DNA of 64,000 nucleotides. Source: Phyllosticta citribraziliensis. Lineage: Eukaryota. The notes under the pieces were generated by a model, which was not told the origin of the DNA, ran no database searches, and worked only from the letters and a program-made list of their open reading frames with translations. The translations under genes were made by a program, and so were the position numbers. This document shows positions 23,800 through 61,759 of this stretch, in pieces (position 1 is the stretch's first letter; every line of letters starts with the position of its first letter). The stretch is taken from contig NW_027117338.1 in the NCBI RefSeq assembly GCF_038025025.1, positions 1,426,001-1,490,000 on the forward strand. The letters are read 5' to 3'.

Positions 23800-23897
23800 G
23801 CGCTTAGGGAGCATCATCTGCTGTTGTAGTCGCCCTTATGGAGCATTCATCCATTGCTACAGTCGCGCTTAGGAAGCACTCGTGCGCTGCTGCAGCC
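23800..23897 (-). repeat. 33-bp dispersed repeat family, array of 3 units
   Basis: Plus-strand units: gcgcttagggagcatcatctgctgttgtagtc / gcccttatggagcattcatccattgctacagtc / gcgcttaggaagcactcgtgcgctgctgcagcc. Confidence 0.85.
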
Positions 23898-25298
23898 AGA
23901 CCCAGGGTGTCTCATTCCTTCCTACACCCACTGTGCGGGGAGCATTGAAGCCGCAGACTGCAAACCCCGCCACTGTGTGTGCCACGACTTGGGCTAACGG
24001 GCCTTGGGTGTTGGTTGCGATGGACACCAGTTGCGTGACATGGGGGCACACAAACAACATGCAGCTCGACAGAATGAGTGGATTGCGGCGGTTTGACACG
24101 ACAGTACGCGACTGGATGGCAGAACCGTGTCATACGGGGACGGCTTCTCCAACTTGGAGCTCATGGAGGCTGCTCATTTCCGTCCTCATCGAAGCTTCCA
24201 GGTACTGCGCCCCATGCAAATACCTTCACGTTGGCGAGTGAGACACGTCCATTTTCATCGAGCCTTGGTATTCCATCTCCTGCTCCAGCCCATTCTGGGA
24301 ATTCACATCGTTACCACCATAAATCTCAAAAGAAAGGTCAGTCTCTGATTTAAGTTGCAACACTGGATGACAGTCCCCCCGACACAACCATCGACTTGAA
24401 AGACAGCTCCACGGTCCAGCCGCGGTCCTAGGAGGTACCATTCTGTTCGGCGTCCGCTGTGCTCCCTGTCCAAGAAAGCACGGCGCGGCTTGGCGCATGT
24501 ATTCCTGCTGGTTTCGCTATTCCTGACTGCCAAGTTGATAAAGCACAATATTTGCAAACATGAAACCGGGCGGTAAATTTCCAAGGTCGTACAGCAGCTT
24601 GGTGTAGAGTGCCCAGACAACATTAATGCACCAGAAGCAATGCCACGGCGGGCACGTGGGCTGGGCGCGCCAAGCCAGCGCAATGTCCGACCCGGCGGCG
24701 GAGCGGAGAAAGGGCCCCCTTGGCGACGGGGCTTGCAAATGTCGATCATGGAGCAGCTGTGTTCGTTGCCATTTCCTGGAGACTTTGTTGCGTCGGGCAC
24801 TGGGGTGATTGAGAGCATTTGTCTCTCCACGTGCCCGCGCCAAATTTCGACTGCTCTCCCGCGGTGCCTCTTGGCAATTTTTTCATTATCGCGAGACCTT
24901 CGTTGCGATTCCAATAGATCCGGGCCAAAGCAAACCGCTTCAGATTTTGTGCATGGAGAAGACCGTCAAATGGAGTTTGCAACGAAGTCGCAGAGGTCCA
25001 GGGTCTCGCAAGTCGCCAATCGGAGTTTACGCATTTCTCATCCGTCCAACTGGCCCCGCGCCATTCGACCCTTGCGCAACACCACAGTCGGGCGACTATG
25101 ACCTGATGGAATGGATATTACCATCCGGAAGCCGGAAGATGGAGCGTGATTGTTGTCAAAGCAGCTGTACAAAAGCATCAGCATGGGACTCTCTCTCTTC
25201 TCTCCTTCCAGCCTTGGCTATTGGTGGAGATGGTTAGCTTTGGACTTTTGTTTACCAATATCTTGACCCTTATCTTTACTTCGCTCTTGACGACGAGT

Positions 25299-26269
25299 AT
25301 GGCTCGAGCCACCAATCACGCGGCGAAGCCGTGGGCAGATCAGCCTTGCCCGTTGATCAAGACTCCGCAATTCGAGACGAAAAAGGTCAGTATGCTCGAA
25401 TTGTCATCCTAGCACGCTCAGAAGCATTCAACTGAGGCCATGCACAGGACGACATCTTCACCAAGGGCGCGACACATATGGCACTGCTGCACAATGCCAT
25501 CCTCCGAGGATTCAACACGATATACCTTCAGGCGCCGCACGTCAAGGATGAGCAAGAAAAGGCCGACTTTATCGGATACAGCCTTGCCTGGCACAAGTTT
25601 GTCGCGTCACACCATGATGACGAAGAGCGCGAGTTATTTCCAGCCGTCGAAGGAGTGCTGAAGGAAACGGGAATCTGGGAAAAGACGCACCAAGAACATG
25701 GTAAGCGGTAGTCCCTCCGGAGCATTCGTCACAGCTGGATCCTGACCACCACGACCACATCAGAATCCTTCCTTGGCGGCCTCGCCGACTTTGAGATCTA
25801 CCTCAGCTCCCTCCACTCGCCGTATGCGTTTTCCGGTACTGAACTTGTCCGCATCATGGACACGTTCCGCGAACCGTTTGTCAACCACTTCCACTCGGAA
25901 ATTGCCACCATTGCCAACTTCTCCACGCTGCCCAACGCGCCAGCAGCAGGGTCTCCCGAGGCGGATACGACGGCGGCAACATTCAAGGCATGGGGCAAGA
26001 AGACGTTGACCAAAGCCGGCATGACGGACGTGGTACCCTTCTGTCTGTTGAATATGGACGGCACGTACGAGGACGGCATGTGGGCAAACTGGCCGCCGAT
26101 GCCTGGACCAATACGGTGGATGATGGTGAACGTGTTTGGCAGCTGGAACTGGGGCTGGTGGCGGTTTGCGAGCTGCTACGGCAACGGGATGCCGCGGCCT
26201 TTGTACGCGCTCGAGGGTGTCGCGGACGAAGCAGCCGGCAAGAAGGAATCGGACAAGGGCGAGCTGTGA
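25299..26269 (+). CDS. Hemerythrin/HHE cation-binding domain protein (~281 aa; an upstream in-frame ATG at 25230 is possible)
   Basis: Exons 25299-25385, 25448-25700 and 25764-26269 are in frame. Di-iron ligand pattern HNAILRG..HHDDEE..HQEH..HFHSE. Confidence 0.85.
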
Positions 26270-27546
26270 GACAGGATAAGGAGGCTTCCAGCGTATTTCC
26301 CTCAATACCTCAGGGGGCGCAGGAACATATTTGGCGCGCTTGAGGCTGTTCGGGTATGGCTGGAGTTGGTTCGGAGTTGGGGAACGGAGCATGTTCAAGA
26401 GGCATTGATCGATTTCTGGAGCACGTAGGCATTGAGGGATTTGTCGCTGACGAGCAACGGTTTCAGCGTGCGCTCACTGATGCGTGATGGGCCACTGCAG
26501 TGTCCGGTGAGAGTAGCAGCTCAAAGGGAGCATTCGTCTCTCGGGACTCGGCAGTGGTGGAGGCAGAGAAACCCGGGCGAACGGGGAATCAGTCCCAGGT
26601 TCCAGACTGCCGGTTGGTGCTTGTCTTGTCGAATCCAAGGCGATCTCGAGCTCGCCAACGGGATGGGATTGGAGACGTTGACGTTGCCCCGCAGGATATC
26701 TCGTGAGACGGCGGTTGAGGTGGGATGGCTTCAGTGCCGTGGCTCTAGACCCCGAGACGTGCTGACGGGCTGCCTTGGGTGAAGATGAGCTTGACCTGTT
26801 GTGCAATTCCGAAATAGAAAGTTGTTGAGCAGCAGACGGCGCATCAAGGCCCCTGATGGTGCAGTGCAGCATGTGCAGAGGGAGCGCGACCTACAGCCAG
26901 AGCGTGTGCAGGCAGCCCTCGTGTATCTGTGGCCGTGGCCACGCGCAGTCAGGAGCACATGGCTCTGGTGTGGCTGCAAGGCACGAGACGCAGTATTCAG
27001 CATGAAACGACGGCCATGAATCTGTTTAGTTTAGAGGCTCTGGTGTCGCGGTGCAGGCGATGGGATTCAGCATCAGGACGAGGGGCTGTCATCGGGAAAC
27101 CCCACGGCACTCCGCCACTCCGTCATGGTGCGGGAGGGAGCCGATTGCGAGACCCTGCCACACTGCGGATGAAGCGAGGAGTGAGGGAACCCAAGAGGCC
27201 GAGAGATTTCCTTGGCCAGGCTTGGGTAATGGCATGCTGTAACCCGGAGCGAGCGAGGGAGAGACCAAATCCGGCGCCGAGGGCCTACCTGACTTGCTTA
27301 GGTCCCTTCGACTTCACTTGCAGCGTCGCTCCTATAAAGCACGCCGCGTATCCACGGCTCTAGAGACAAACGCCTCATCGACCCTTTGCGACGACATCGA
27401 CAGCGACAGCCACGCGCCCGCCCCGACTCAGTCGTAATCAATCTTACGGGCCCCGATCGAACAAAAAAAACCGTTGAGCGCGAGTCGGCGACCGCGGCAG
27501 ATCACGATCCGTTACAGTCATAGCCCGCTCACCAACAAACCGGACA

Positions 27547-30952: not shown

Positions 30953-33900
30953 AGGAGCATGCGGTCGCTAGCTGGGGCTTGACGAAGGGGTTGAGAGAAT
31001 CGTGTTGGAGAGAGGGTTGGACGGTGAGAAAAAAGGCGCACGCAGACTGAGCACAGCGAACGCCACTACGCGGAGGACAGTCAGACCGAGCTTGGATCAA
31101 CGGAGGGTATTTTCTCTTGCGATAGAGTAGAAGAAGTCACTGCGCTCAACAATAATGGCAAAGCTTGGTCAGGATTTGAAGAAGCTGGCCTTTTCAGGCA
31201 AACAGCACAGGAGCAGGGCTCCATTCTTGAAGTAGTACGTCCTCAATTGGCCTTGTTCATGTTATCTCTTGAAACGTTTCTGCCCTTGTCCATTTGCTGC
31301 TCTCCGACGATGCCGCCAACAATGAACGCTCCCCAGAGGCTGTGGACAATGTCAATGGTAAGAAGCTCCACAAAAACCTCCTGTACAGTTGCTTAGTCTG
31401 TCGTAGACTCTGACGTTCAAGCTGTAGTCACTGTTTTTGCATCCCCGACACACACTCTCATGAGCAGTCAGCCAAGGGATGACTACTGTATAATGGCCCG
31501 AACCAGATGGAACAATGGGCGCGGATCGGATGGAGCAAACACGGCTCCGGACCGCATCCGCGTGTTGAAAGCGCTCCCATGCTTTGGTGGAACCATGGCC
31601 AACATCACCACCAAAACCGTCCGGGGGCTGCGACAAGCCCATATGGAGCCAGGTGCGCCTTTGACGACCTCCACGGCGTCTCGTACTTGGCGGTTTTACC
31701 CGAGAAATTTTGCAAGCAGCAGGTCTCGAGAAATTCACATTTGCGCCCAGAGCCGGTGTTGGACAAGAACGAAAGGAGACGTCGCGCCCAAGCAAACGGG
31801 GGTTTCTGCTTGATCGATTGTATTCTCCACTTGTTTCCTGCTTCATGCAGCCCCCAAGCGACCGATGTCCAGACGGCGAGTAAAGTACAATGCGGCTCTG
31901 AAGTTCAGTGTGTTTCCGCAGAGCTCACCCATCAGCGGACTCCAACCGTGCGCCCTTTGCGCATGGACTTTACCCCAAAAGCCAGGCTGGCTGAGTCGTC
32001 CAACGTCGTCTGGAAGTACCATCGCCGATACCACTCTGTCCACTAGACACGGCGCTCTCGCCTCCTGCAAGGGTGAGTAAAATCTTTTTGGTCCCCAGCT
32101 CGGATGTTTTCTAACTCCAACAGGCATGCCTGTCGACGTGAGCTCGTCGATGTGGGAAGTGTGGTGTCAGACGACAACAAACACGAAACTTTGAGAGGTG
32201 GTTCCCTTCAGGCACTGACTGATGAGTACTGGGGACCAACACTATACGATTCGAGGGAGCATACTCAATACCAATCCTCTGGTGCAACCCCCGTACGTTG
32301 CATCTGCTCAGAAGTGTCAATTTGATGGTAAAATCGACTGCTTTGCTTGAGCGAAGAAATGCAGATGTCGGGGAGACGGGTAATTAGTTTGTTGGTAGAT
32401 AGTCTGCAAGGAATCGAAGCATTTGTTTTGTTTGATTTTTCCGAACTCGTCTCGGGTAGCAAAGTGGTCTAAGGGGGTAATCCAACGCCGACACTCGTTC
32501 GATGCCAAACCAAAGCGGAGCTCATCATTCGATGACTTTTGACTGATCATAGGCCCAAGCCCAGGCGTGTTCTCGTACCCGCATCGCCGTATCTCTCTGG
32601 CCCCACCTGCGCTCCCTTGTTATGCAGAATATAATGACATTTTCCCGCTATGTCTTCCACGTACGACCATAGCAGGTAGAAAACTCGGAACCCCGTCCGC
32701 TCTTCCATAGATAAGCTACCTTGCGGCCGATTAGTAGTTGCGTGGGTGACCAGCAGCGAATCCCGGCTGTTGTACGTTTTGCATTTTGTTTTGTGGGTCA
32801 GTGTGGCCGAAGAAGTGTGTGCTGTGGGTGGGCCGAATGCTCCTTACCCCTGACACGACGACCCCTTTGGTTTTTTTGCCGACTCTCTCCAAGCTGTACT
32901 TCACTCAAAGCAAGTGCAAGAAACGCAGTCGGACTTCTCGCGTCTTGATGGGGGGGTCCGCAGTTTGCAACTGACCGTCGACCAATTTCATCGCTCCGAG
33001 CTGACCGACTCAGCAGCGAAGTCGGCGTTCTTGTTTGGCCTCAGGCACGAAAGCTCTGTTTGCTTGCTTTTTACCGGGTAAGAATGGCGCTGCGTTCAAA
33101 GTTGCGTTTTAGCCAATCACAAATCCACCCGCAGGAAGAAGAGGGGGAAATCGGGCCTTTGCTTCGCTTTGCTTCGCATTGCTTCGCAAACGCGTCCTCG
33201 TCTTTGCACATGTCCTCTTTCTCTGTCAGCGTCGACTTCTTATGAGAGTCAGGCGAATTGGATAGAAGATGGAGATGAGGCTTCTGCGGCGGTCGGTTGT
33301 AGCCGGCTATCGCGCTGTGAGGAATTGACTGGGCTGGGTAGCCGGCGAGAGCCTCAGGCGCGCAACTTGGCCTTGAGGTGTGTGGTTGCAACCGGTTGCA
33401 ACCAGCTGCTACGTTCGAAGTTGTATCCTGACCAATGGCAAGAGGGATGAGCTGAACATGCTTTTGCAGAATCTTGGTTTCTCCCCTCCCACTCTTCCTT
33501 TGACCCCTTCCGCTCTTTGCTTTCCACCCCGTGAAGAAGAAGAGATCGAAACGGAACCGCCGAAGGAGTCTCCTTGCGACGTGAGGCTGGTCGAATCCAA
33601 GGGAGAGATCCAGACGATGATGGAAGCGGCAGACATGTCCTCAGGCAGAAAAGACCGACTGGTCCGTGTTTTAACCAGTTCTAACCACACGCACGATGTT
33701 TGAAGTTGTTCGGCAGCCAATGACGAAGCTCAGCGGCAGAGCAACACGCAACGTCAGTTTCCCGTGCAGCTCAGCGACGTTCGAAGTTGTCTCGCCACCA
33801 ATCAGAGCCCGCGAGCAGCAGCGCAAAGCTCTCCGCTGCGTTGCAGCATCTCGTATCCAGCAGGCCAATAGGGAGACAACGGCAGCGCGATGCTGCCATT

Positions 33901-34088
33901 TCATTGGCGGACCCGCCAACTTCGAACATCTGTTGACCGCGCGAACTTTGTTCATGTGCAGTGTTGGAGCCTCATGCAGCAGCGATTGCGTGAGTTGCGC
34001 CGAAGCGAATGGCTGTTTTCAGAAGACGTCATCAAGAAATTGACCGACGAAGGGGTCGCGGGGGGCGTAGAAAGAAATGAGATTCCCT

Positions 34089-34158
34089 AGCTGCAATGAA
34101 CGAAAGCTCCTTAGGCGCAACTGCAGCAGTAAATGAACGCTCCCTAAGCGCAATCGCA
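34089..34158 (+). repeat. 33-bp dispersed repeat family, 2+ units
   Basis: ctgcaatgaacgaaagctccttaggcgc / aactgcagcagtaaatgaacgctccctaagcgc / aatcgca. Lies about 50 bp past the stop codon of the DUF1295 gene. Confidence 0.85.
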
Positions 34159-34204
34159 TTGCCTGAGGTGGATGCATATTGAGCAAATTTCAGTACATGC
34201 CTCA

Positions 34205-40566: not shown

Positions 40567-40839
40567 GCGAAGCATAGCATGGCCCGGTGACGGCATCAAA
40601 ACGGTAAAGTTGACACCAATACCCCTGTATAGATAAGAAAGATGCCATGCAATTGGACCACGAGAAGATTCCAAGGCGGCACTGCTCAATCTTTTTCGCG
40701 ACTGCGATTTCGTCCATCTTCTGCCTTGATCTTGACAACTTACTCGCATCTCATTTTGTCATGTTGACTGAGCGCTTTCCGATTGACGTTCTTGAAACCG
40801 CTATGACGACCGACTCCGGCGCCGACACTCTCTTGGCCC

Positions 40840-40978
40840 CTCTGCGGTGGTGAGCGACAGCTCCTGAAGCGTGGCCGTGGCGGTGAACGACAGCTCCCGA
40901 AGACAAATGTGGCAGCAGATGACTCCCAGCTACATCTGCAGTAGTGATCGTATGCTCCCTGAGTGCAGTTGCAGCAGT
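40840..40978 (+). repeat. 33-bp dispersed repeat family, ~4 units
   Basis: tctgcggtggtgagcgacagctcctgaagcgt / ggccgtggcggtgaacgacagctcccgaagaca / degenerate unit / atctgcagtagtgatcgtatgctccctgagtgc / agttgcagcagt. Confidence 0.8.
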
Positions 40979-41512
40979 TTCTGGCTTCATCATTTCTCTT
41001 GACGCACGCTAAGATGCAAATACTGTGGCTTCCACGACTCCTCACCAGGAACGAGTAACGACAATACCGCAAAAGGTGCCTCGCAGGAGTGTTGATGCCA
41101 CAAGTGGTTAGGTCAAGACGCGGCACTATTTGGCCGAGCGGCTTCGGTTGCCTAGCAGGGGTGGCCACCGCATCTCCAACTTCGCCACCTGACCTTCCAG
41201 CGATTGGACGACGCATTTTCGCATCAACGTCGTCCGTGGCGCAATACTGTGGCTATTGCAGGTTTGGGTAGGGCTATCATGTGGCTCGCGTCGGAGCCTC
41301 CGCGTCTCCAATCGCACTGACCCTGTTCTGCCTTGCCGTTCGTTGGACGGGGAGGCAGCAGTAGGCTGGCTACTGTACTTGTAACGAGTCTCTCGTTGTT
41401 TGCGCTACTTCTGATCTTATGTTCGGTCATTTCGTTACTTCCTGTCGGATCCGTTGAAAAGGCACTGAACTTCGCATGCTCGGGCGTCAACAGCTCCCGT
41501 TCTTGAATCGCC

Positions 41513-43013: not shown

Positions 43014-43078
43014 GGCAGAGTCTGATCTGGTCAGTCTCCCGCACAGTTCGTGTCAAGAAAAAAACAATCCCTGCATCT

Positions 43079-43150
43079 AGCCGTAGTGGTAACGACAACT
43101 CCCCAACTCCAGTCGCAGCAGTGAATGAATGCTCTCTGGGTGTAGCTGTA
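43079..43150 (+). repeat. 33-bp dispersed repeat family, 2+ units
   Basis: agccgtagtggtaacgacaactccccaactcc / agtcgcagcagtgaatgaatgctctctgggtgt / agctgta. Confidence 0.8.
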
Positions 43151-43669
43151 TTGCTAGAACACATCATTTATTTTGTCACCCAAATATGTATCTGCGAAGC
43201 AAGATTCCCTTCACAAGTTATTTTTCTCTCCTCACTTACTGAAACATCACAGTATCCAGTCTCCTCTATCCCGCTGAAGATGAGTCAAAGCACCTCACAT
43301 GATTGCTACTAAGTTTGTCAGTCTGAGATCGTGCGAACCCGTGCGAACTTCACGATCTCTCCGTCTCTTTTTAGCACTACAGCCTGGGACCGTGCAAACT
43401 TTCGGCGCGACCTTGGTCCTTATAGCTGAGAGCTCTAGCACAGTTTGTCACCTTGACAACCTCTCGCACCAAACGCACTCCTCGCCTGACGACTGCCCAT
43501 CACCGACGGAGGGACTGAGAGCCTCATATTCAAGTTTACAAGACTGCCAGACGTGGGCTTCGTGTGGTGGCAGAACGCGTGCCTCGCCCATCCGACGACA
43601 CCGATTGACAGTATCACATCACCCGCGACATCAACTGCTTCAACGATTTCACGAGAGCCCAACGGAACA

Positions 43670-44101: not shown

Positions 44102-44158
44102 ACCAACGGCTTGCACACACCATTGGTCCTTCGCGCGCGCGGCAAACCGACCCAAACC

Positions 44159-44301
44159 CACCACGGCTACGCCCAGGGAGCAGCCCTCCATCACGGCTAC
44201 ATGTTATGAGCAGTCGTACGCCATCACATTTGCGATTATGGAGCTGTGGTCGTCCTTCAACACCGCTGGCGCGTAGGGAGCAGTCGTTCATTACTGCAGC
44301 A
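44159..44301 (-). repeat. 33-bp dispersed repeat family, ~4 degenerate units
   Basis: Best unit is 44269-44301, reverse complement tgctgcagtaatgaacgactgctccctacgcgc. Further GAGC cores recur at about 30-33-bp spacing from 44178. Confidence 0.75.
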
Positions 44302-44387
44302 AGACTCAGACAGCACCATTTCTTCTGACACCCTCACTCAGTCAACGAGTGCTCCCCATCCTCTACCAAGGCCTCGCTTCACCGTAG

Positions 44388-45615
44388 CTAGACAGAATCC
44401 AAGAACATGTCCACACTCGACCTCGAATAGCCCGTGACGCGCGGATACTGACTCCAGTCCTGATCAAACAGCACCGCGTCCTGGCAGGCACTGCCCAAGC
44501 TCGTATTATTTAACCACGCGGGCTCCCAGTACCAAATGCCCCGGCCGACACCGCCCACCACGCCTCTCACAATAGCCTCGACGCGCCTGACCCACGCCGT
44601 CTGTCCTGCCGCCCCGATCTCGATACTCGGCTCGCTCAGCGCCGGCGCGTCTTCCCCGTCGCAGCGCGCAGGCCAGTCGGTCTCGACGACGTGCAGCGGG
44701 GTGCCAGGGAAGCTTCGTGCGGCCCAATCCAGCGTCTTGGCCAGGTTTTCAAACGTCGCGTTTGTGCCGTAGAAGGGGTAGAAGGAGAATCCGAGGACAT
44801 CCCAGTCGGCGGGCGTCACCAGGCCCGTCGCCGTCAGCGCGCCGAACCAGCGCTCTTGCAGCGTCGCATTCCACCCGTTGTCCATGTGCAGCATGACGGC
44901 CGGGCGCTGACGGTGGTCGATGTTGCTGCTCGTGGAAACGAAGTCGTCAAACCCTCGCCGCGCCGCCGCGTACAGCGTCGCCAGGCCCGTAAAGTTTGCA
45001 ACGCGCGCGGCCGCGGGCTCGATGTCGACGTCGGCCTGGCCCAGCGGCCACAGCATGCCGTGGCGAATCTCGTTGCCGAGTGAGACGAGAGCGAGCGGGA
45101 TGCCAGCGGTGTCAAAGGCGTGCAGCGTGTCGTTGACGTAGGCGCGCAGCGTCCCAGCGAGCGGCTCAAGGGTCGTTGGCCACGCTGCCGGGGCGTTGTT
45201 GTGCTGCGGGTCTGCCCACGTGTCGCTGAAGTGGTAGTTTAGGTAGATGGCCTGTCCAGCGCGGTGGAAGCGTGATGCGAGGGCCAGCACGTAGGAGAGG
45301 TCGTATTGTCCGGGTATGGGATCGACCCAGAGGCTGTGACCATCGTCAGCTGCTGAGAGATGGGAGTAGCCATGTTCCCTACCGAAGTCTGACTCCGTTC
45401 ATGCCGCCGTCTGCGAGTATTTCGTCGGCGCGTCTGGTTGCATTGTTGCGCGCCGTATCCACGAAGACAGCCTTTGAGTCGCCATCTTCCAGCATCTTCA
45501 GCGACGAAAGATCGTGGCCCTTGTAGAAAAAGGCATCGTGGCCATCATTGGTCGGCGTGGTGGCAGCGAGGCCTACCAGCCATGTGGCAACGCCTAGCAG
45601 ATGTGTAGAATGCAT
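44388..45615 (-). CDS. Secreted GH53 endo-beta-1,4-galactanase (~392 aa)
   Basis: Signal peptide; motifs KGHDLSS, NGVRLRLWVDP (across intron 45334-45382), YHFSDTWADP, acid/base GNEI, nucleophile VVETDWP, WYWEPAW. Confidence 0.93.
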
Positions 45616-45733: not shown

Positions 45734-46154
45734 CAGTGCCATTGAAGCGAGGTAGCGAGGGACCTCGTATAAGTCATCCGTCTGCCATCGTGATGCTGGA
45801 GGTGGTGTCAATCGTTCTCCAAGACTCTGCACCACACCAGCCGAGACGGCCAGCTTCAGATAGACAAAGGGAGCCGAGCAAAAGATTGTGCTTTGGAGGG
45901 TGTCCGATTAGAAGAATGCAGAAGTCCAGAGTTGACCTCTTAAGCAACATGTTTCCCCTGCGACTCTCACGACCCTGGCGCTCCATTCCCCTCACCTGCA
46001 TTTATCCGCATAGTGGGCTACGCCCAGAGTGGAAGTCCCCATCACGAATGTGACAGCTGCGAAGCGACAGTCATCTCGAAGAAGCTAGCGAGTACCTTCC
46101 ATGCGCATGCAGTGCGTCGGATCATAGGTATGAGAAGCAGGCGACTGGGTCTTT

Positions 46155-46258
46155 GTACGCCGGAGAAATACAGCTCCCCGGGCATGGCTTGGTCAATCAG
46201 CGAATGCTCCCTAGCTTCATCCGCAGCGGTGAATGAATGCTTCCTGGGCACAGACGCA
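46155..46258 (+). repeat. 33-bp dispersed repeat family, 2-3 units
   Basis: ggcttggtcaatcagcgaatgctccctagcttc / atccgcagcggtgaatgaatgcttcctgggcac / agacgca. Confidence 0.8.
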
Positions 46259-46925
46259 ATTGAGTAAGTGTTGGTTTCGTGCCTGGCTCTTCTCGCTGCT
46301 TCGAGGAGCGAAAGACGAGGACATTCGTCGAAGACCATGAATGTGTCGTGGTGATTGCCTGGATCTTCGAGATGATGTCTTTCAGGCCTGCCGCTGATCT
46401 TGGCCATCAGTCAGCGAGCTCCAATAGCTACGCGCCTGTCCTGCGCATCCACCGTCATCGCAGAAAAAACTTCGTTCTTTCGTCAACTCATCAGAATGGG
46501 TTCGGCCTCGAAAAATGTCCTGTTGGAGACGCCAAATCCGCATCACGTCAAACTGCGTCAATAAAATTTTCGCTGACTCGCATTCGACGCCACGTGCATC
46601 ACTCTTCACCATGGCATCGCGGGCCGAGCCTAAGGCACCGCGTCAACCTTGTGTCGTTCTTTTGCGATTTTGGTGCGGAATGTGCTGATGAGATGGAGCC
46701 GACCGGTCTCGTCGCAGCTGCAGCAACACGAAGCCTCAGAGGGACACAGAATCACGCAAAGCGAACAGAAGACCAAGTCGGATGGCATCTCGGTGCTTGC
46801 GCGATTTGCAAAAGTCGTCAGGGCGTCTTATATTGAGCTTCTCCGGGGGTATTCGGATGGCAAAGAGATGGTGGTGATGGCTCTGCAATCGGCGCTCAGG
46901 TCCCGTCGTCAGGCAAAGCTCCCAA

Positions 46926-48678: not shown

Positions 48679-50036
48679 GTAGGTACCCAGGTAGTCTGCG
48701 GCGGCCAGCAGCAGCAGGGCGCAAGGGCGGGCGATGTTTGTTTCGGTTCAGTTGGATGCCATCGATAAATGGCACATTTGCGGGCGCTGGATACATGTTT
48801 CTTCTTACCCACTCTTGTGCTTGTAGAGGCGCACCGGCAAGGGCTATCATGCGGCGGCGTTGTTTGTCATTTCCACCTTTTCCATAGCGTCAATAATCCT
48901 CACTCCAAAAAGCCTGAATAGTTAAACTAATGCGTACATGTCTTAGACGCATCATGAGTCTGCTCGCATGAGACTGACTGCAGTCTCCCCCTTTTCTGGT
49001 TTCACGCGTCTCTGATGATCTCTTCGCCACACAACACCACGTCGCTCGCAGCCGGCGCCCGAGTCGATCGACGTTGATTCATCCAACCCATCCATCCACT
49101 TGGGTCTTACCTACCTCCATGTTGTCCGCCACTCTGCACCTCACCAGCGCGTCTCTCCATCAAAAGACGCCACTGCCACTGCCACCGCAAACGACTCGCA
49201 TCTTCATCTCAGTCGCTTGGTTCAAGACCCACTTCCACAGTGAGCGCGACTTGTGCATGTGAGGCATGAGAATAGAGCAGATTGACGGCAGATTGTTGTC
49301 TTCCGCGCCACAGTGCGTGCCGAGAGAAATGATACGCCTCCGGTCAGGCAGCTGGCAGCTGCTGCGGCGTGACTGGTGGTAGCGGACGACAGCTCCCCAT
49401 CTCCATCCGCAGCAGCAGCAGGGGCAGCAAACGGATGCTCCCTGGGCGCAGCCGCGGCGCCAGAATGTACCTTTCCTTTGAGCACCCACAGTGAAACCAT
49501 CCAAGGACCATGCTCAGACGTACGTACGTACGTCTTTACCTCTCTTGAAAACCGTGAGAATAAAGGCAAGTCCCGCATCTCCGGAAGAAGTACACGCTGC
49601 ACCCTTCCCCCCTCTCCCTTTTGACGCCTGGCTGTTCTCCGTTACATCATTAGACGGCAAGCCAGAAAAGCGAGAACGTGAATGCTCAACGACACGCCGA
49701 AGGAATTCTGGGCCTCGTCATTGGTGCAGCCAAAATGCGTGAAATACATATGTACCTGTGCCTACTGCCTTGCTAGCAGTGCGTGATCGAATGGCTGCAT
49801 TGCAGCCCGCTTGTGAGTTGCAGCAGCCGGATTGGTCAAGGCAAGGAAAGCAAAGACGGAATGGACGCGCAAAAGGGACGCTCTGGCTGACAGCAAAGAT
49901 CAATCCGCAAGGCCTTGGGACTGCAGCAGCAGCAAGCACGATCAGCGTCAGCCTACCTAGCAACCCCAACGCTCCCCAAAGCAAGGGACCTTCCGCACTC
50001 AAGCTCCACGGCAAAAAAGGACAGGCACCAAAAGAC

Positions 50037-50068
50037 CAAAAAAAACAAAAAAAAAAAAAAAAAAAAAC
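50037..50068. repeat. A-rich/poly-A tract, one of many simple repeats in the 48.7-56 kb intergenic region
   Basis: Directly visible. Also (GCGT)n at ~50252-50272, (GGT)n at ~52871-52888 and ~53498-53518, and (CTCTG)n at ~54010-54029. Confidence 0.9.
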
Positions 50069-53000
50069 TGACAATTGCAGCCCAACCAGGAAGCCAAATG
50101 GGAACAGGCACAGAGTAGAATAGATGAAACGACAGATAGGAGTGCGCAGGTCCGCTTGGCGCAGTAGCCCCCCGTTTAGGGCTGAGGATCTGAAAGGCTG
50201 AGAGCTGGGTAGTAGTGGGGAAATGATTGGTTGGCGGGCAGAGTGCTTGCTGCGTGCGTGCGTGCGTGCGTGCCGTCAGGGTCCAAACGGGCTGGCCAGG
50301 ATCCGGGATGGCGAGCGCCGAGAGCGAGGTTTGGAGTTTATTTGACGGGCGAGCGAATGATGGCGAGGGTGCGAGTGCGCGGTAGGGATCAGAAAGGATG
50401 GATAATGAGTGGAAAAGGCAGGACAGAGGCGGAGAGGAAAACTAGCAGTCGCAAGAGAAAAGAGTTGTTGATCAATGCGTGCGAGGTCGGCGGCGCAACG
50501 ACGAATGGAAATAGACGGATTTTCTAGAAGGGTTGGCGTTCTCCCGCTCCGCACATCACCACGTGCGGTGGTCACCGTTGATGCGGGATGGCGGTTGGGT
50601 GCGTGCATGCGTGCGTGCGCTGCCGCCGTTGGTGCCTTGGTTGAAGTGCCGCATCTGCAGCCAGCGTCCTGTGCAGCGGCGAAGCGGTGGTGGTGGGTGG
50701 GTGGCTGCCACGGCTTGACTCGTCTGTTGGCGACGACAGGCACGGATGGGGTTTGGATGGGGATGCCTGAGCAGATGGGCGTGAGCTTGAGTTGGTACCA
50801 GGCGCCGGCACGGCGGGACTTGGGAGGGGGAGGGATCAGTTGGCACAAACCACAGCTTGGACGATTCGAAGGGCGCAGGCACACGGGAGGGGAGGTGGTC
50901 AAGGAACCTCCAAGCTGCAAGGAACAAAGTGCAGCGGTAGGGCTGAAGAGAAAAAAAAAATGGAAACAGAATCGAAGGACGCTCGGACTGCCCGGATGCT
51001 CGCCCATCTCAGAGGTTGAGCTTAAGGAATCACCATGGCTGTCTTGACAAACGTCAAATTTGCCCCGATATGACGGCATTGGCCCAGCTGACGTCGGTAT
51101 CCTGCCCTGGCGCGCCTCTGCCCTGGGTCCTCCCAGCTGCATCATCCTGCGACGCCCGCTGCCGTCGTCAGCAACCAGCGCCCTGACATGAGTCTAATTT
51201 CAGGCGGTCCGGGTCGAGTGGAGGATTCTGTCGACGAGCAGCCACCATCCTACCGCTGTCCGTGTCCGACCAGCGCCCTCTTGAGTCGCCTCGCAGTCGG
51301 CGGCGTGATCCGTGGCACGAATTCATTGCTCTGTCAGTTCCAACGCGCGTACGACAGTGCAAGTGCACCGATTGGGAATTGTTCTCGGCTATAATTCTGC
51401 TATACCTCAAATAAACTCTGGAGTTGACATACCTTGCATTGAAGGCCGTATTTTTAGTACTCACAGATTTCACTGCACACTGGTCTTGAATGATTTTCCC
51501 TGTCGTGCATGTCTTCTTTCGATTGTGAGACATGGAGCCCATCTTTCGCTGAGCTATCGCTATTTTGGCTGGCTCGAGCACTGCCGTCGTCTGATAGTCA
51601 GGTGTGCATGTCGAAAACGCACATGACTGACTCGTTGACCAGCTCTGATGACATCTGGTGCTTGTGCATCAAGGATGGGGGAGCCATGACACAGAGAACT
51701 TTGGCGCTCTTCAAACTTGAGATGCGTTGCTTTGAGAAGCATGATTTGGAACATGCCATGGTGGAAAGAGTCGTTGCGCACACGATGATAAAAGGCGGAA
51801 CAGTTAGGGAGTTTGATCCGCTGCAACAGACAGCTTACAAGGAGCACGTAAGCGTCGCTAAGGGTTGGAAAGAGGGAGCATTCGGGCCCCGATTCGCAAA
51901 GCCTCAGGATTCCATGCGTCCGATTGTCGTCACCAAGTCTCGGAAAATATGCTAGCGAATGTACGGTCACGAAAGGCCTCAGACGACTGACTGATAGGGC
52001 AAGCTGGCTTGACCGAGTCACCCAATTGGCTGAGAAATTAGGTTCGCACGCACCGAGATGCTTGTCTAGTGAGTGCTTGGAGGAGAAAAGTAGCTTGTCA
52101 TGGGGGTAAAGATGGGCCAAATATAACACAGCCGCAGACGTCCGGGACCTAGAGGGGCTAGGACGTGGTTGCGGCAGGCTCTCGTCCTGGTTTCCAACGG
52201 CAAAAGCTTCGTGTTCCAGGTTATGCGCATCGGCTTCCCGCGTCAACGACGCTGGGCACATTTTGACCTTTTTCTCCCGCGTCAGCCCTACGCACAGAGG
52301 AGGTCCCTGAGATGGCGCAGGTCTCGCGCGTGCGGGAGGGACGCCTGATGGGAAGAGGGCTCGAGCTGTAGCTCTTTGGAGGACTTTTGAACTCTGGAAT
52401 CGATCAATGTGGCTTGACTGGTTGGCGCAAGGGAATCCAGGTAACGCGTGCGGACTGGGGAGAGGGCAGCGTCGCCCTACCCGCAGCGAGCACGGCAACG
52501 GCAAGGCCCCTCGCCGCCCCTTTCCAGAGAGCAGGCGGGAAGTCAACCGAGTTTTGCCAGCACACAGTCCGAAGCGAGGCCCCTTCGGTCTTTCTGGAAG
52601 CATTGAAGAAGCCGGGAGGTCCCAGTGGGTGCGTGGGTCAGGGAGTCCGTGAGTCGTCGGAGGCTGTGTCGGTGAACGAGCTGCCAGCGGTTCCGGGCTT
52701 GCCCAGACCGAGGCGGAAAAGCGCAGGCGAAATTGTGAACAGGGCTCGGCGGACGCCTCTGGGCCGATTCCCTGGCATTTGTGTCAGGACGGGAGGCCTT
52801 CCCGCCCATCGACATGTTGATGTTGACCGGTAGGAATGAGTTGGCCATGGACGCGTTGGGCAATGGCCATGGTGGTGGTGGTGGTGGTGGGCTGGGTGAA
52901 GCGGCAAGCAAACCTACAGAGTACAGGCTGCATGACCAAGCGCAAGCGAAACAGACGGTGGAGACAAGGGCCGAAGATCTGTGAACATGTCGGAACAGAT

Positions 53001-56000
53001 CTCGGGATAAATCATCTTGCAGCAGAGGTGCAGCGTGGACAGTGGAATGACTCGCAGACGAGAAGAGACGTCTTGGGTGGAGGCGGTGCCAATGTCGACA
53101 GATGGCTCGATGGAGCAGCGTTTCGTGCAGCGAGAGTGGGGGGGTCACTGGCGGAAGAGGATGCCGGAGGTATGTAGAAAGATACCTACATGGAAAGGCC
53201 AACGGGCCGAGCAAAGTGGTCGGGTGGATGACTGATGAGAGACGAGGTGGTGAAGTGGCAGCGGGGAAGGAGCATGGATATCCGGCAGGCCAATGGGAAG
53301 GCGGGAAGGAGCGACGCGGGTGGGTCTGAGAGCGAAGTGGCAGCCGGGCGCAGGGCAGGGCAGGGCAGCGGGCTGTGATTGGGCCGGAGGAGGGGGCTCT
53401 GGAGTTGCAAAGAAGGCAATTTTCCAGAAACATGAGACGTCGAGAGAGACACGGGCCTGAACGGAGCGGGCGGAAATGAAGCATCGGATCCCGTCTGTGG
53501 TGGTGGTGGTGGTGGTGGAGGGAGAGAGAGTCGAGAAGGGCAGGCTTCTGGAAGGCTGGTGGAAAACGACGGGAGGGAGAGGTGAGGGGCCCTCGCCCTC
53601 GGGCCCCTGAGCCATGACGCCGAAGGCCACGGCCACGGCCGCGGGAGAGGTGAGCCACGATCGTCGGTCGCTGAAACGCACTGGGCGACGCCGACATGGT
53701 TACCTTACGGTATGGACCTGACTGACAACGGCTGCCCTTCACCGCTGCGCCGCGCCGTGTCATCTGGGGTGCTGCAAGCGACGTCTGAGTCTCTCCTCTG
53801 CTCTGGCAGTTCTGCTCGTGCAGGACATGGAGTGAGGATCATCTGGATGCAGTGTGCGCCGAACATGTCGTCGAAGCACCATGGAAGCAGCGAAGAAGGT
53901 CACGCGGCTCGGGCATTGGGTTGGCTCTGGCGGCGGCAGACAAGAGTTTCCCGTGTAAATTAAACTCGGGCAGCCTTGACTCGCGCCCCCCGAACCAGCG
54001 AGAAGCCTGCTCTGCTCTGCTCTGCTCTGTTCTGCCTCGTTGCTTTTGGCCCCTCCCGTCCCTGGCCTTCTTGCTTTTGGCCATGCAAACCACTATACGC
54101 TGCGTCGACGCCTGCGTCTGCGTCTGCCGCCGCTGCGCTGCATCGTGCTTCCATCGAATGGCTTCGCTGCAGCCCATGTCGTATGCGGCAAGCCGTATGC
54201 CGACCTCGAGCCGAGATGAGCGTCGAAAGCGCAGGCTCATCAGTCCAAAACCCCTTAACCCGTTACGTATGCGCCGTGTTGAAGGCGTACCAGCCATGAT
54301 GTCACCCGCGCAATTGGTCCCGGAGGCGCGCCCCCAATCTTTTCACGTCTCCATCCATCGCCGCCGCAGCAGGCCATCGCAATCAGCAGAGACGAGCTGC
54401 CCTCCCCCCCCCCAAAGAGAAGAGTGCTGATAATAATAACAATAAAAAAATCCGAGACGCAGAACAGGGAACCTCCATCCTCCTGGCCTGCAGCGAAGCC
54501 GGTCCCTGCTCGCCCTAGAAGGCCGCTAGAAGTCTTCCCTTGTTGTTCCATAACGTGCATGCTGCATAATTTGACCCGTGCAAGACCATGTTCCCCTGCA
54601 TCCCAAACCTTGACTGCGCTAACCTTGCCCCCTATCGCCCACCGGCCATGCGGTGAGGCCAAAGGTGGATGCTCCCGAGCAAGCTTTGGCGCGACAGCAT
54701 CAGTGCCTCTGTGATCCCAACCGCTGGCCAGGGTATTCCAGCCCGCAGGGCTACTGCTTCTTCTCGCCGTGCAAAACGCCCATGATCTACATAACTGCTG
54801 TGACGCCCCGACCTTGCCGTGCCCTTTTATCTGGTCGCTGAAGCCCGCAAGAGCCTCCCCGTCCGTCTTGTATCCTCCCTATACATATCCTCGGCCACCC
54901 AGACCCTCTGCCTGACCAGACGATACCCTACCCAGTCCACCCCTACCACCACGAGGCCTCTCTCTCTCTCTGCTCCCCTCTCTGCCTGCCTGCAAGTCCG
55001 GTACCTGCAAATCTGCACGCATCCGCCCTGGGCTCCACGACTTGTTGACAGGGCCGCGCCTCTCGCCGCCACCAAGGCACACCCACAAACGACGCGACGG
55101 CTTCGGCACTGACAGCGGGCCTTAGACCGGACAAAGGCGCAGAGATTTCACCGCACGCGAGACGACCAGGTCGACGCTCACCATCCGTCTGTTGCCGCAG
55201 CCCGTTGTAGACGCCCTCAATTACCGTCGCAGCCTCGCGCCAGCCAGCCCGGCCAAAACTGAGGACCAATTGCGCCAGCGCCGGTGGGATTGGTGAAACT
55301 CGCGGATCCAGAGGTGTCAGGACTTTGAATCGGGATTTAGCGCGAACCCCAATCCGGTATAGCGCCGTCCAGTCAGACCCAAAACGCGAAGGAAAAGAAC
55401 CGTATTCCACGTACGTACCTACAACTTTCTCACTCTTCTCTACCTCCATCCCAACTCCTCACCACCTCGCTCCCGTCTCTGCCCGTCTCAAAGGTACGTC
55501 CTTGATACGACCATCCACTGCACTGCGAGCCCCGCGCCCCCCCTCGCCGCCTGCACCACTCGCCCGCCCGCCCGCGTCCCCTTTTCCTCCACGCTCGCCG
55601 TTGCCGCGACTGCTCTCCGTCGCCTCAATGATATCCCACCCCCTTTGCGCTCTGCTCAACTCGCTCGAGACCGCTTGCTGACGTGCGTGCTTGAGCCTCC
55701 AGTTCGCTGCCAGCTTTGACCCTCGCCTGGCCCGTCCCGTCGCAGCAACCTTCGGACGGACCACCCACCGCAAACACTCGGAGCCCACTGTCATCCCTCG
55801 GCATTGGCTCAAGGGCTCTTTTTTGTTCTTCGCTCAGTCGCTCGAGTCGGTCAACGCTTCTGCCCACCCTAGGAGCGGTCTGAGAAACCATCTCCATACT
55901 GGTGCGCACCTCTCCCGCCTCCTCGGACCTCGTCCTTCCTCAAGAGGCCCTCCCACCCGTCTGCTGCACTGCAAACGCGTGGGCCCCTTCACACTCCAAA

Positions 56001-57569
<1,569 letters not shown>

Positions 57570-58787: not shown

Positions 58788-60732
58788 ATGTCAAAGGTGG
58801 TGCGCAGCGTCAAGAACGTCACCAAGGGCTACTCAGCCGTCGAAATCAAGGTCCGCAATGGTACGTCGCGCCCGCGCCCAACCTCTTGTCCCCTCCACGT
58901 CGCGCAAACTAATGCCATCGCAGCCACCAGCAACGACCCGTGGGGTCCTGTCGGCAGCGACATGGCCGAAATCTCCCAGTTGACCTACAACAAGTGAGCA
59001 CCGCCCGACTCCTCGACATGACGCCGCGTCAGCTGTCCGACCGTTTCGCAACGAACACTGATTCATATCCGCAGCAGTCAGGACTTTTATCAGATAATGG
59101 ACATGCTCGATAAGCGCCTCAACGACAAGGGCAAAAACTGGCGCCACGTGCTCAAGTCGCTCAAGGTGCTCGACTACTGCCTGCACGAAGGCTCCGAGCT
59201 CGTCGTCACCTGGGCGCGCAAGAACCTCTACATCATCAAGACTCTGCGCGAGTTCCAGTACATCGATGAGGACGGCCGCGATGTTGGCCAAAACAGTACG
59301 TCATGCTTTCTGCGGCGATTCCTTGATTCCGAGATTACCGCCGACTAACCGCAATTGTGCAGTCCGTGTATCCGCAAAAGAGCTCACCGCCCTGATCCAA
59401 GACGAGGAGCGCCTGCGCGCCGAACGTGCCGACCGGAAATCATGGAAATCTCGCGTCACGGGCCTGGAGGAATTCGGATACCCCCATGGACACGGTGGCG
59501 GCGATGTGACGCGGCCGCGCGAGCGCCAGCGGAAAAACCGAGACGAGGAAGATCTCGAATACAAATTGGCAATCGAAGCGAGCAAGAATGAAATGGAAGA
59601 GGAGCGAAGGAGGCGCGAGAGGGCGGCTAAGAACGCCGAGGAAGATGACGATCTCCAAAAGGCAATCAAGCTAAGCCAGGAGGAGGAGGAGCTTCGTAGA
59701 AGGGAGCTCGAAGAGACCAACGCCTCGAGTCTGTTCGATGATACTCCCGTTCAGCCTGCTGCCTCTCAGCCCACTGGATGGAATCAGGGATACCAGCAGC
59801 AGGGTGCTGTCGACTGGTTCGGCAACCCAATCGGCCAACAGCAGCCGCAAAACACTGGTTTCCTCAACGCCGCATATTCGCAACCGACTGGCGTGCAGCC
59901 ACAGCAGACTGGCTTTCAGAATGGATTTGGCTACGGCGGTTACCAGCAGCAGCAGCAGCCTCAACAGGGCTTTCTTCAGCCACAGCAGACTTCTTTCAAC
60001 ATGAACAACCCCTGGGGCCAGCAGCAAACCAATGGATTCGGAGACGCCTTTGGCCAGCAACAACAGCAGCAGCAGCAGTTGGAGCAACAAAACACACTGC
60101 AACCTGGAAGCCACAATCCGTGGTCATCTACAGGATCTCATACGACCGACTCGATCGCGCCCATGAAGACTGGCTCCAACAACCCGTTTGCCTCGGCCAT
60201 CAATAGACCGGCCACGGCGCAACCCACGAGCGTGCGCCAGGCTCCCACCCTCGGCACTCTAGCAGAGCAAAAGGCCACAAACAGTTTCAACCCAATACGC
60301 GACTTTTCGTCCTCGAGCTACACCCAAAATCAGACGCAGCCTACACCATTGTCCCAGCCAGCACAGCCACCCGCCAAGCCAATGGATGATCACACTGCTC
60401 GCCTCAATGCGCTTTTGGCTTCTGGCGAAGGTCAAGACACGTTCGGAAACGTCGGCGAATTACGTATTCCTGCGCAGCACACAGCCCCAGGCACTTTCGT
60501 CAACTCGGCTGGTCAGGGAATGAGCAAGCTCACGACCAACCCTACTGGCAGCAATCCATTCATGAACAGCCAATTCACCGGCATGCCGCAACAGACGGGC
60601 TTCACCACGCAGAACCGGATGATGCCGGCGCAGACCGGGCCGGCCGGTGGTTTCGGCGGTGGCAACCCATTCGGACAAAGCTTTGGGGCGCAGCAACAAC
60701 AGCAACAGCAGGGTAGCTTGATTGACTTGTGA
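58788..60732 (+). CDS. ENT1: Epsin, Ent1/Ent2 type (~577 aa)
   Basis: ENTH start MSKVVRSVKNVTKGYS, ATSNDPWGP, KNWRHVLKSL. Two UIMs (LAIEASK, AIKLSQEE), NPF motifs and the C-terminal clathrin box SLIDL. Introns 58861-58923, 58994-59074, 59296-59362. Confidence 0.96.
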
Positions 60733-61708
60733 GAAGAGAGAGCGACCGTGATGCTGTAGATTAGGTCCATATTGTGGCCACATCTTGTGGCTCAACGATG
60801 GTGGATTATGGCATGATGCCACCGCCAATCTTTCGGTTTGGTGCTGCGGTTCCTGCCCATAGCATGCGCCCAAGTCGGACAGGCGGGGTGCCGCTTGGGG
60901 AGAGCTTGAAGGTTTGGGACTCTCGTCGGGAGGTTGTAGAAGTTTTCATTCCTGCTGGAAAAAGGGGAAAAGTTGCAGACATGGGATGGGATTGGGGGAG
61001 AAGCAATTACTCCTCTTCTTCCGAATGCCCCGTCCTCTTTCTCTTTCGTTTCGTTCCTTTGTCTTCTTCTCTCTGTTGTCATTGAATGTTATACCAAATC
61101 GATCATAGGCTTCTTTAGGTTTTCTTCTTTTTTTACAAGGGTTATACCATCTCCTTCCACTTCTTCTGCAGTCACCCTGTTCTGCCTAGTGTTGTTTGAT
61201 GCACCGCTTGCGCGTCAACCTTGCTTGTTGTTTTGAATTCTACTTTTGCTAGGTTTACGTCTTTCATGATTCCGTGTTTCGTCAGTCGGCCTGTTGGGGT
61301 ATGGCATTGCCTCTTCAGTCTCTTTTCCCCGTCATCTCGGCCTGCTTTCAGCCTTTCCCCGCCCATCCACCAACCAACCATCCACCTGCCTATGTGTCTA
61401 TCCCATCATACAGTCACACATGTAGCCATACCCTCCTCTTCCTTTTCTTCATCCTCTCATCGGATTCCGGAAAAAAAATCAAAAGACCGTTTCTTGCGCT
61501 GGCTGCTCGAACATCTTGCTTGCTTGCTTGCTTTCAATCCCCGTCACCAGAGAAACACGCTCATACACATGCATTCGCAAAATCCAAATCATTGCTTCCT
61601 GTTTACCTGCCCCCCGCAATCTTTCACCACTGCCGACGGACGAAGGGTCAGACAGACGATAGACAAGCGGATGGAGCTGGCTCTCACCTCTGGTCTTGTC
61701 TTGTCTTT

Positions 61709-61759
61709 CCCGAGGCGCAACTGTGGCGGTGAATGAATGCTCCCTAGACGCAGCCGCAG
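61709..61759 (+). repeat. 33-bp dispersed repeat family, 1 full unit plus partial flanks
   Basis: cccgaggcgc / aactgtggcggtgaatgaatgctccctagacgc / agccgcag. Confidence 0.85.

Follow-up and report, generated by a model that had tools for sequence, protein, structure and literature searches.

Short fungal MITEs are spared by RIP and lie close to genes (PMC9970103). Epichloe festucae has degenerate MITEs (PMC3227409) that, like DTX_MITE_Goblin of Zymoseptoria tritici (PMC9970103), are short, old and gene-proximal, carry little trace of RIP and have common orthologous positions; similarity is 62–84% among the table rows consulted, all 13 Epichloe families together account for 1,249 copies and ~1% of the genome, and three Epichloe families have been likened to CACTA elements (PMC3227409). 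Fungal EnSpm elements are marked by CAC..GTG ends and a 3-bp target site duplication (TSD) (PMC12730594), CACTA elements have been reported in another Dothideomycete (PMC4522978), and the subterminal repeats of the EnSpm/CACTA group (CMCT clade) are 10–20 bp long and run in both directions (PMC12730594, PMC8978399). DTC84 of the clam Donax trunculus is a non-coding element whose inverted ends enclose a short array of at most five units, with ordered, position-specific unit variants and a copy number that varies between elements (PMC3879986). Within Phyllosticta, library-based repeat rates are 0.29–2.19% (PMC6965161), and most interspersed repeats of P. ampelicida are unclassified (PMC12506662).

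Here we analyse a 64,000-nucleotide stretch of Phyllosticta citribraziliensis DNA (contig NW_027117338.1, positions 1,426,001 to 1,490,000; hereafter the window), in which arrays of a 33-base unit form the interiors of ~150–210-bp non-coding elements with inverted ends. The elements are of a known kind, probably MITEs, and are notable mainly for their density and for one short, unusually well-kept core motif. They resemble the Epichloe and Goblin MITEs in size, age, proximity to genes, scarcity of RIP and common orthologous positions, but contain an internal tandem array, a feature not described in the consulted parts of PMC3227409 and PMC9970103. With EnSpm/CACTA elements they have in common the 5'-CAC..GTG-3' ends, possibly the repeated short motifs inside these ends, which are comparable to subterminal repeats, and, in one inferred case, a 3-bp duplication; unlike them, they begin with CACAG rather than CACTA, their repeats are 33 bp long and run in one direction, no transposase is seen among the 37 window ORFs, and a TSD is not visible in three of four copies. 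The likeness to DTC84 extends to the layout (with two to four units here), the ordered unit variants and the varying copy number, whereas the microsatellite segment and the AA duplication of DTC84 are missing, the units are non-palindromic, the ends are of the 23-bp CAC...GTG type and the host is a fungus. The two families described below make up ~2.9% of the window and, if this density were typical, extrapolation would give some 4,000–5,000 copies per genome, several times the reported Epichloe MITE load. As a MITE family this is a modest but real addition that would hint at a CAC-ended transposon lineage formerly active in Botryosphaeriales; it would gain in significance should the core turn out to have been under selection since insertion.

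Architecture of the array-bearing elements

The original prediction described a dispersed family of gap-free 33-nt units and quoted seven of them, all of which are present at the coordinates and on the strands given. The family is real: leave-one-out PWM scores of the seven units are 29.0–37.7 bits, 15 window sites score at least 15 bits against a mean of 0.25 (maximum 2) in 20 local dinucleotide shuffles, and a degenerate unit pattern matches 10 window sites and none in 100 shuffles. Arrays do occur in both orientations, transitions do exceed transversions (85:43), and the nine clear arrays lie outside mapped ORFs and Pfam domains, the gene models being a rough reading. The units are less uniform than had been claimed, since only 15 of the 22 unit slots measure 33 nt, the others being 28, 30, 32 (three), 37 and 45 nt. 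Three arrays had been overlooked (24353-24417, 49372-49449 and 51770-51924), and among the weaker copies proposed, that at 31308 is supported outside the core (p=0.008) while those at 26520 (p=0.11) and 30950 (p=0.09) match in the core only. Tandem Repeats Finder, run on the window, did not report the arrays.

Contrary to the earlier statement that the repeats have no terminal inverted repeats (TIRs), a TIR is found at 11 of 18 array ends (p<0.05) with training ends that were chosen by eye from this window. Seven of the nine arrays have at least one such end and four have both; the other seven ends fall short of significance, and the arrays at 46186 and 61719 have no end that passes. The layout of these elements (family 1) consists of a 23-bp inverted end (CAC...GTG), a ~15-bp linker, two to four units, a 21–25-bp tail and a second inverted end, and the spacing between TIR and array is 14–15 bp in four of six significant left ends and 21–25 bp in all five significant right ends. 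Leave-one-out nhmmer recovered all eight training elements (E 5e-4 to 2.6e-22), the best score of the element profile against 20 shuffles being 5.3 bits. One element (24315) was located by its ends, and its two units were then seen at the expected places. The nine family-1 copies, together with the family-2 elements, solo units and isolated cores, are as follows.

23752..23935, minus strand: complete family-1 element; TIRs 19/23 alike; leave-one-out E 2.6e-22; ends p 0.0013 and 0.0003
23865-23897, 23832-23864 and 23800-23831, minus strand: the three units of this element, which is nested in a family-2 element
24315..24461, plus strand: complete family-1 element; decayed units 24353-24385 and 24386-24417; E 5e-4; ends p 0.036 and 0.004
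34057..34165, plus strand: family-1 element with left TIR (p 0.002), shortened linker and tail; units 34086 and 34119; right end not significant (p 0.058); E 3e-18
40826..41013, plus strand: family-1 element; four units 40840-40966; right TIR 40991-41013 (p 0.008), left not found; E 9e-10
43042..43188, plus strand: complete family-1 element; units 43079-43110 and 43111-43143; E 8e-14; ends p 0.004 and 0.009
44158..44339, minus strand: family-1 element; left TIR (p 0.005), four units 44169-44301, right TIR not found; E 7e-13
46150..46294, plus strand: family-1 element; units 46186 and 46219; E 3e-11; neither end significant (p 0.31, 0.64)
49309..49493, plus strand: complete family-1 element; TIRs 16/23 alike; two clear units and additional decayed sequence; E 2e-15; ends p 0.002 and 0.005
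61708..61774, plus strand: truncated family-1 relic; one unit, a partial unit and the start of a tail, no TIR; outside the training set, E 2.8e-10
23622..24005, minus strand: family-2 element; different ~30-bp inverted ends with unit cores inside; split by the 23752-23935 element
51753..51941, minus strand: uninterrupted family-2 element; its three cores are spaced at 34 and 33 bases
31308..31340, plus strand: solo unit; 22 bits; non-core p 0.008; no TIR found
44331..44363, plus strand: solo unit adjoining the 44339 element in opposite orientation; non-core p 0.013; possibly a remnant of another host element
26527..26536, minus strand: isolated core 10-mer CGAATGCTCC
25719-25728 (minus), 32834-32843 (plus) and 42489-42498 (plus, inside an ORF): further sites of the isolated core 10-mer

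The complete copies measure 147, 147, 184 and 185 bp (size ~81 + 33n) and, being short (<500 bp), homogeneous in size and devoid of coding capacity, have the properties of MITEs. The two TIRs of a complete family-1 element are 43–83% alike, and a generic inverted-repeat search, too strict for TIRs so decayed, detected arms at no more than 3 of the 16 sites. Seven of the eight ends of the four complete elements, which were partly picked for such ends, start with CAC; the three lone ends (34057, 44339, 41013) do not.

Nested insertion and mode of movement

The arrays are likely to be the inner parts of old DNA transposons of the non-autonomous, cut-and-paste type (tandem-repeat-containing MITEs); among the natures suggested earlier, that of a mobile minisatellite or non-autonomous element relic finds support and can be refined to TIR-bracketed elements of the MITE type. 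A DDE transposase from the EnSpm/CACTA-Mirage-Chapaev-Transib clade would have mobilised them in trans, and we lean towards an EnSpm-type enzyme as the most likely, given the CAC...GTG ends and one apparent 3-bp duplication. The scan of window ORFs found no transposase domain, and no autonomous partner was found. The unit number may have shifted by slippage or unequal exchange, and elements near or below 200 bp would have been too short for RIP and so escaped it, accumulated near genes, and then gone inactive and decayed before these species split. RIP was rejected as the decay process, its signature being absent (CpA changes 12/90, CpG changes 11/60; TpA/ApT 0.64).

The duplication comes from a nested insertion. 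Similar unit arrays are contained in a second TIR family with weaker support and approximate end points, whose two members align with a score of 66 (shuffle mean 13.5, maximum 51 of 1000) and are paired by single-sequence nhmmer at a weak E of 0.12; a third copy seen by eye at ~44108-44388 was not recovered by the family-2 profile, and neither was the solo unit at 44331..44363. With the 51753..51941 element serving as the empty paralogue, register is best restored by deleting the 23752 insert together with three bases (24/44 matches as against at most 17 at other lengths). Three bases were best in 8 of 10 alignment settings and seven scored slightly higher in two; five were never best. The duplicated triplets match at two of three bases, and we infer from this one insertion a 3-bp target duplication. 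That single case aside, the original observation of no TSD largely stands: none was seen at the three other complete copies, and over all four no length of 2–12 bp exceeds chance (flank matches 1/8 at 2 bp, 3/12 at 3 bp and 8/20 at 5 bp). Against a TIR transposon, it may be noted that ends still 43–83% alike lead one to expect some TSD signal.

The ends also recall Transib/RAG signals (PMC1131882), which likewise start with CAC, and three of seven intact ends start with the heptamer CACAGTG or its one-base variant CACTGTG. A Transib reading was nevertheless rejected, as the AA of the nonamer (positions 5–6) occurs at a spacing of 12 or 23 in none of the seven ends and a 5-bp TSD is unsupported. 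Transib transposase is reported to be absent from fungi (PMC5751038), soybean rust being an exception (PMC1131882).

The conserved core and its possible roles

Unit columns 17 and 21–25 are off-consensus in 7 of 129 cells (5%) as opposed to 29% overall, the GCTCC core being ~5% diverged. Columns are overdispersed (chi2 86.7 on 32 df) and the best-conserved ones cluster (p 0.0006), while rate variation in a tree-aware model is weak (lnL gain 2.2, alpha 3.6). Had a single master simply decayed neutrally, the core would be much less well preserved than it is, which counts against the MITE reading. Because this contiguous core is far better preserved than the rest of the unit, the original notion of an arrayed protein-binding site is probably right in a narrower form, as a candidate site for the element's own protein. 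Units that were multiplied binding sites of this sort would account for the retention of both the GCTCC core and the 33-bp spacing as master copies diversified, and for the recurrence of the same core in two different shells. The 15 bases inside the TIR match unit positions 19–33 at 33/74 (left) and 30/75 (right, inverted), as raw counts. Similarity is greater between the last units of different elements (0.63) than among the units of a single array (0.57; permutation p 0.033), which indicates that arrays spread ready-made.

An unlikely alternative, though the strongest of the rivals, is that the MITE-derived core is now a host cis-element, a DNA- or RNA-binding site under purifying selection, with the arrays as a dispersed regulatory or chromatin network. 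Besides the conservation of clustered columns it can draw on CGAATGCTCC: outside masked elements no other 10-mer is so over-represented (5 sites, 0.19 expected), and four of the five sites are without unit or TIR context. However, family 2 accounts for one of them and another lies inside an ORF. Selection on active masters would leave the same conservation, the rate variation fades once the tree is allowed for, and ascertainment matters, since the sole element found from its ends (24315) has both cores damaged. By the rough gene reading six of the nine arrays are situated 3' of genes, and one is bridged by a contig from a run with spliced contigs, but sense orientation in five of the six is not significant. 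The distance from the preceding stop codon is ~300 bp for the 40826 element (a GNAT acetyltransferase gene, presumably SidL-like), 29 bp for the 43042 element (a DUF7587 ORF) and 49 bp for the 44158 element (GH53); as a whole the family is dispersed in both orientations over gene spacers and behind stop codons. Truncation of the ORF at 43670 by an insertion was considered, but a weak search turned up no relatives of greater length.

Persistence at orthologous sites speaks for the host role too. Contigs of related organisms contain orthologous copies as well as paralogues whose ends are the same, in a comparison that rests on the entries listed, namely 40 of the 2,457 differences, 12 of the 232 gaps, 15 of the 70 joints and 20 of the 311 loose ends. 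The 43042 element has orthologous cover in run X4, from another organism, and the 44158 element is spanned by record 20 of run X7; among the matches listed, loose ends in X4 (4–7 contigs each) continue into the same TIR, linker, a further unit and tail, one ending in GTG, in support of the MITE reading. Yet one X7 contig skips 66 bases of the 40826 array, so that the orthologous array differs by two whole units. Cover of the window by run X5 is almost nil and by run X3 little, and no empty orthologous site is found among the 15 of 70 joints listed, a point against the MITE reading.

A bolder scheme, to which we give marginally less credence again, would have two unrelated transposon shells share one 33-bp-phased binding-site cassette, recognised by a single protein that would also attract new copies to existing arrays by nesting, the host-selected core at thousands of gene-proximal sites forming a transposon-seeded regulatory or chromatin-marking network in a compact fungal genome regarded as repeat-poor.

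Weaker readings and database searches

Non-autonomous Helentrons or Helitron2 elements (HINEs, DINE-1-like), in which the inverted ends are sub-terminal and rolling-circle movement leaves no TSD, have a central tandem array between inverted repeats, T-rich insertion sites with TT on both sides, 12–15-bp subTIRs and a 3' stem-loop (PMC4067079). The array layout and the absence of a TSD in three of four complete elements agree with such an origin, but TT flanks occur in none of the four, the TIRs are 23 bp long and the flanks have no sequence in common outside the CAC ends, all of which makes it very improbable; the 40-base flanks fold at -2.7 to -10.7 kcal/mol (raw energies, without a shuffle baseline) in no common pattern. 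Scarcely more can be said for a dispersed minisatellite, grown locally or spread by recombination, with inverted flanks that are chance or secondary: two arrays and two solo units are without detectable ends and unit number varies, but non-repeat linker, tail and ends recur at fixed distances and position-specific similarity between arrays exceeds that within them, and the reading is largely refuted. The least credible, a decayed coding repeat in which each unit would represent 11 codons of a dispersed repeat-protein family, fits the multiple of three and the somewhat greater variability of every third matrix column, but slots of 28, 32 (three) and 37 nt break the frame (30 and 45 keep it), the arrays are TIR-bracketed and outside ORFs with Pfam matches, and the most conserved block ignores codon position.

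Outside the contigs compared above, the exact degenerate unit pattern has no match in metagenome or viral contigs, a plasmid search in distant mode gave no match, and literature searches found no description of this family. The TIR pattern hit 23 metagenome loci, treated as chance; the element profile matched the end alone in 20 of these (best E 0.029) and the unit in none. A REP-like nature, also raised originally, is unsupported, as single units fold no better than shuffles (15 units; mean z +0.14 and +0.31, lowest -1.6) and have no Rfam match, with nothing at E<=1 over 23500-24600; the Rfam match within the window is to 5S rRNA only.

Repeat units and the elements that carry them

The original prediction of a dispersed 33-bp repeat family is borne out: the seven quoted units lie where they had been placed, each scores 29–38 bits against a matrix of the other six, and 15 sites in the window reach at least 15 bits compared to 0.25 in 20 local dinucleotide shuffles. 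A degenerate unit pattern matches ten sites in the window and none in 100 shuffles. The units had been described as gap-free and 33 nt long; the nine arrays hold 22 unit slots, of which 15 have exactly this length and the remainder other lengths. Mean divergence from the consensus is 29%, and many differences are indeed transitions (85:43 versus transversions). Among the proposed weak copies, that at 31308 has support outside the core (the best-kept, GCTCC-containing stretch of the unit), whereas the others match in the core only. The first 23.6 kb of the window, which are rich in genes, yielded no copies.

The claim that no terminal inverted repeats (TIRs) surround the arrays is contradicted. 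All-against-all flank comparison revealed a sequence that several arrays share on their upstream side and that recurs downstream as its reverse complement, and a 23-bp matrix built from five ends scored each left-out end at 16–26 bits. With the element's own ends withheld each time, significance (p<0.05) was reached at 11 of 18 array ends; seven of nine arrays have at least one such end and four have both, while the seven failing ends include both of the 46186 and 61719 arrays (named by coordinate). The gap between TIR and array is 21–25 bp at all five significant right ends; of the six significant left ends, four have a gap of 14–15 bp and the other two gaps of 6 and 40 bp. The 24315–24461 element was found by its ends alone, two decayed units then being seen where expected. 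Whole-element profiles recovered all eight training elements on leave-one-out (E 5e-4 to 2.6e-22); the 61719 relic, which was absent from the training set, was picked up at E 2.8e-10. Over 20 shuffled windows they scored 5.3 bits at most.

The four complete copies measure 147, 147, 184 and 185 bp; CAC starts seven of their eight ends, and left and right TIRs agree at 10–19 of 23 bases. Single units showed no folding; of six whole elements, two fold back on themselves (z below -2.5), as their TIRs would predict. Tandem ACGT runs lie 25 bases behind the 49309 element (49518–49533) and about 190 behind the 61719 element (61947–61967), and no element accompanies the third and shorter run, at 55409.

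A second family, a possible target duplication and a possible origin

The 23752 element is itself enclosed by a second inverted-repeat pair, a score equalled at 1.3% of 150 random sites. Ends of the same kind bound a related stretch at 51753–51941, which holds three cores at spacings of 34 and 33 bases and is the best non-self match, among 12,770 windows, of the 23622–24005 stretch that encloses the 23752 element. The two align with a score of 66 (13.5 ± 8.9, maximum 51, in 1,000 shuffles); single-sequence nhmmer gave E 0.12 in one direction and no match in the other. Left out in turn, three of the four ends rank within the top 6 of 127,938 positions and the fourth at 703. A lone family-2 end match at 2399–2440 (19 bits) has no partner end or cores found nearby.

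No target site duplication (TSD) had been seen originally, and direct flank comparison of four elements likewise gave none above chance at 2–12 bases. With 51753–51941 serving as the empty paralogue for the 23752 insertion, register is best regained by removing the insert plus 3 bases (24 of 44 matches versus at most 17 otherwise); this was best in eight of ten alignment settings and 7 bases in the remaining two. The duplicated triplets are one transition apart, and the 7-base pair matches at two of seven positions.

Fungal EnSpm elements are described with CAC..GTG ends and a 3-bp TSD, within a wider CMCT clade with CA..TG ends and 2–5-bp TSDs (PMC12730594). Within our reading of the elements as old tandem-repeat MITEs, the balance tips slightly towards an EnSpm-type origin; no transposase was seen, hence we do not file them as EnSpm members. 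Unlike Transib, for which conserved nonamer positions are described in all ends (PMC1131882), none of seven ends here has these positions, and the RAG-heptamer likeness is superficial. Helentron-type elements are described with TT flanks (PMC4067079), which none of the four complete elements has.

Layout, dispersal, nesting and change in unit number are demonstrated steps. In the proposed mechanism a DDE transposase would act in trans, cutting at the CAC ends, and the units may be binding sites for an element-encoded protein, by analogy with the role proposed for CACTA subterminal repeats. A subterminal repeat layout is described for CACTA elements (PMC8978399). The elements may have escaped RIP owing to their small size, RIP being described as nearly without effect under ~200 bp (PMC9970103); in line with this, we found neither a CpA bias (CpA 12/90, CpG 11/60, CpT 22/105) nor a RIP-type dinucleotide shift.

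MITEs with internal tandem arrays are already known from animals. Abundant, degenerate, gene-proximal MITEs are described in fungi (13 families, 1,249 copies; PMC3227409), as are 13 families making up 0.2% of a genome (PMC4522978); the two families here occupy, with rough boundaries, ~1,835 of the window's 64,000 bases. No description of this family turned up in the literature searches.

Related organisms and spread of the arrays

Contigs from four sequencing runs of related organisms were compared with the window. Among the loose ends listed for one run (X4), sets of 6, 7, 6 and 4 contigs extend window units; the continuations comprise the same TIR with its linker, the tail, one more unit, and a TIR whose last bases are GTG. 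These are paralogues in another organism, and they were kept out of all element models. X4 also covers 43091–43890 in one piece. Contigs of a second run (X7) omit three stretches that look like introns, bounded by GT..AG or CT..AC; we guess that it is an RNA run. One X7 contig, of the same depth as the acetyltransferase contig, joins 40860 to 40927 and is by coordinates 66 bases shorter, equivalent to two units. Another spans 43421–45333 with 1,896 letters versus 1,913 in the window, and because of this near-full length the 44339 element is present in that organism. Related-organism pieces differ from the window by ~6–9% versus a 29% spread among units, and the insertions are therefore older than these splits. 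The 15 of 70 joints listed include no empty orthologous site.

Last units across elements are more alike (identity 0.63) than units within an array (0.57; permutation p 0.033); for first units the value is 0.55. This matches the pattern described for DTC84, whose unit variants are ordered by position (PMC3879986), and similarity by position argues against local array growth.

The conserved core and its setting

Unit columns 17 and 21–25 differ in 7 of 129 cells compared to 29% overall. Columns are heterogeneous (chi2 86.7, 32 df, units treated as independent) and the well-kept ones form one block (p 0.0006); with a tree, rate variation is weak (lnL gain 2.2). Outside masked elements CGAATGCTCC is the most over-represented 10-mer (5 versus 0.19); one of its five sites belongs to family 2, one lies inside an ORF and one in an intron as read here. 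Selection on active masters, with a selection bias toward good-core copies, can explain core retention; host selection maintaining a network of kept sites strikes us as improbable. A 17-base word including the core is common to 32249–32265 (intergenic) and 56019–56035 (start of a C2H2 zinc-finger ORF), by our estimate at about chance level.

The window is fungal. Its flavohemoglobin (47431–48678) falls in a 90% cluster with named members from Phyllosticta citricarpa, P. citriasiana and P. citrichinensis, and other genes include PSME4, GH31, VPS13, Hsp70, carbonic anhydrase, a GNAT acetyltransferase, GH53 and dispersed 5S rRNA:

32659–32778, dispersed 5S rRNA gene (Rfam, 85.8 bits)

Beyond this gene, at a distance of 56 bases, comes a core 10-mer; its flanks are weakly TIR-like (p 0.19, 0.058). 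Also behind it, 33099–33922, without a recognised gene, holds five copies (four forward, one reverse) of AAGTTG followed after 8–9 bases by CCAAT, presumably a CCAAT-box (0.14 expected; none in the rest of the window); the array looks like promoter-type modules. The short, lysine/glutamate-rich ORF 43670–44101 ends ~60 bases before the 44339 element and is possibly a truncated gene; a weak search for longer relatives found none, and just before its stop lies a motif that resembles the opening part of a fungal F-box-like domain. The 49600–55400 stretch, upstream of the C2H2 zinc-finger gene, has many short tandem repeats and no Pfam match in three ORFs tested. One X4 contig joins 30797 to 32653, missing the 1,855 bases that lead up to the 5S gene, and another joint near there steps back 142 bases at 30803; the species may differ here by an insertion or deletion.
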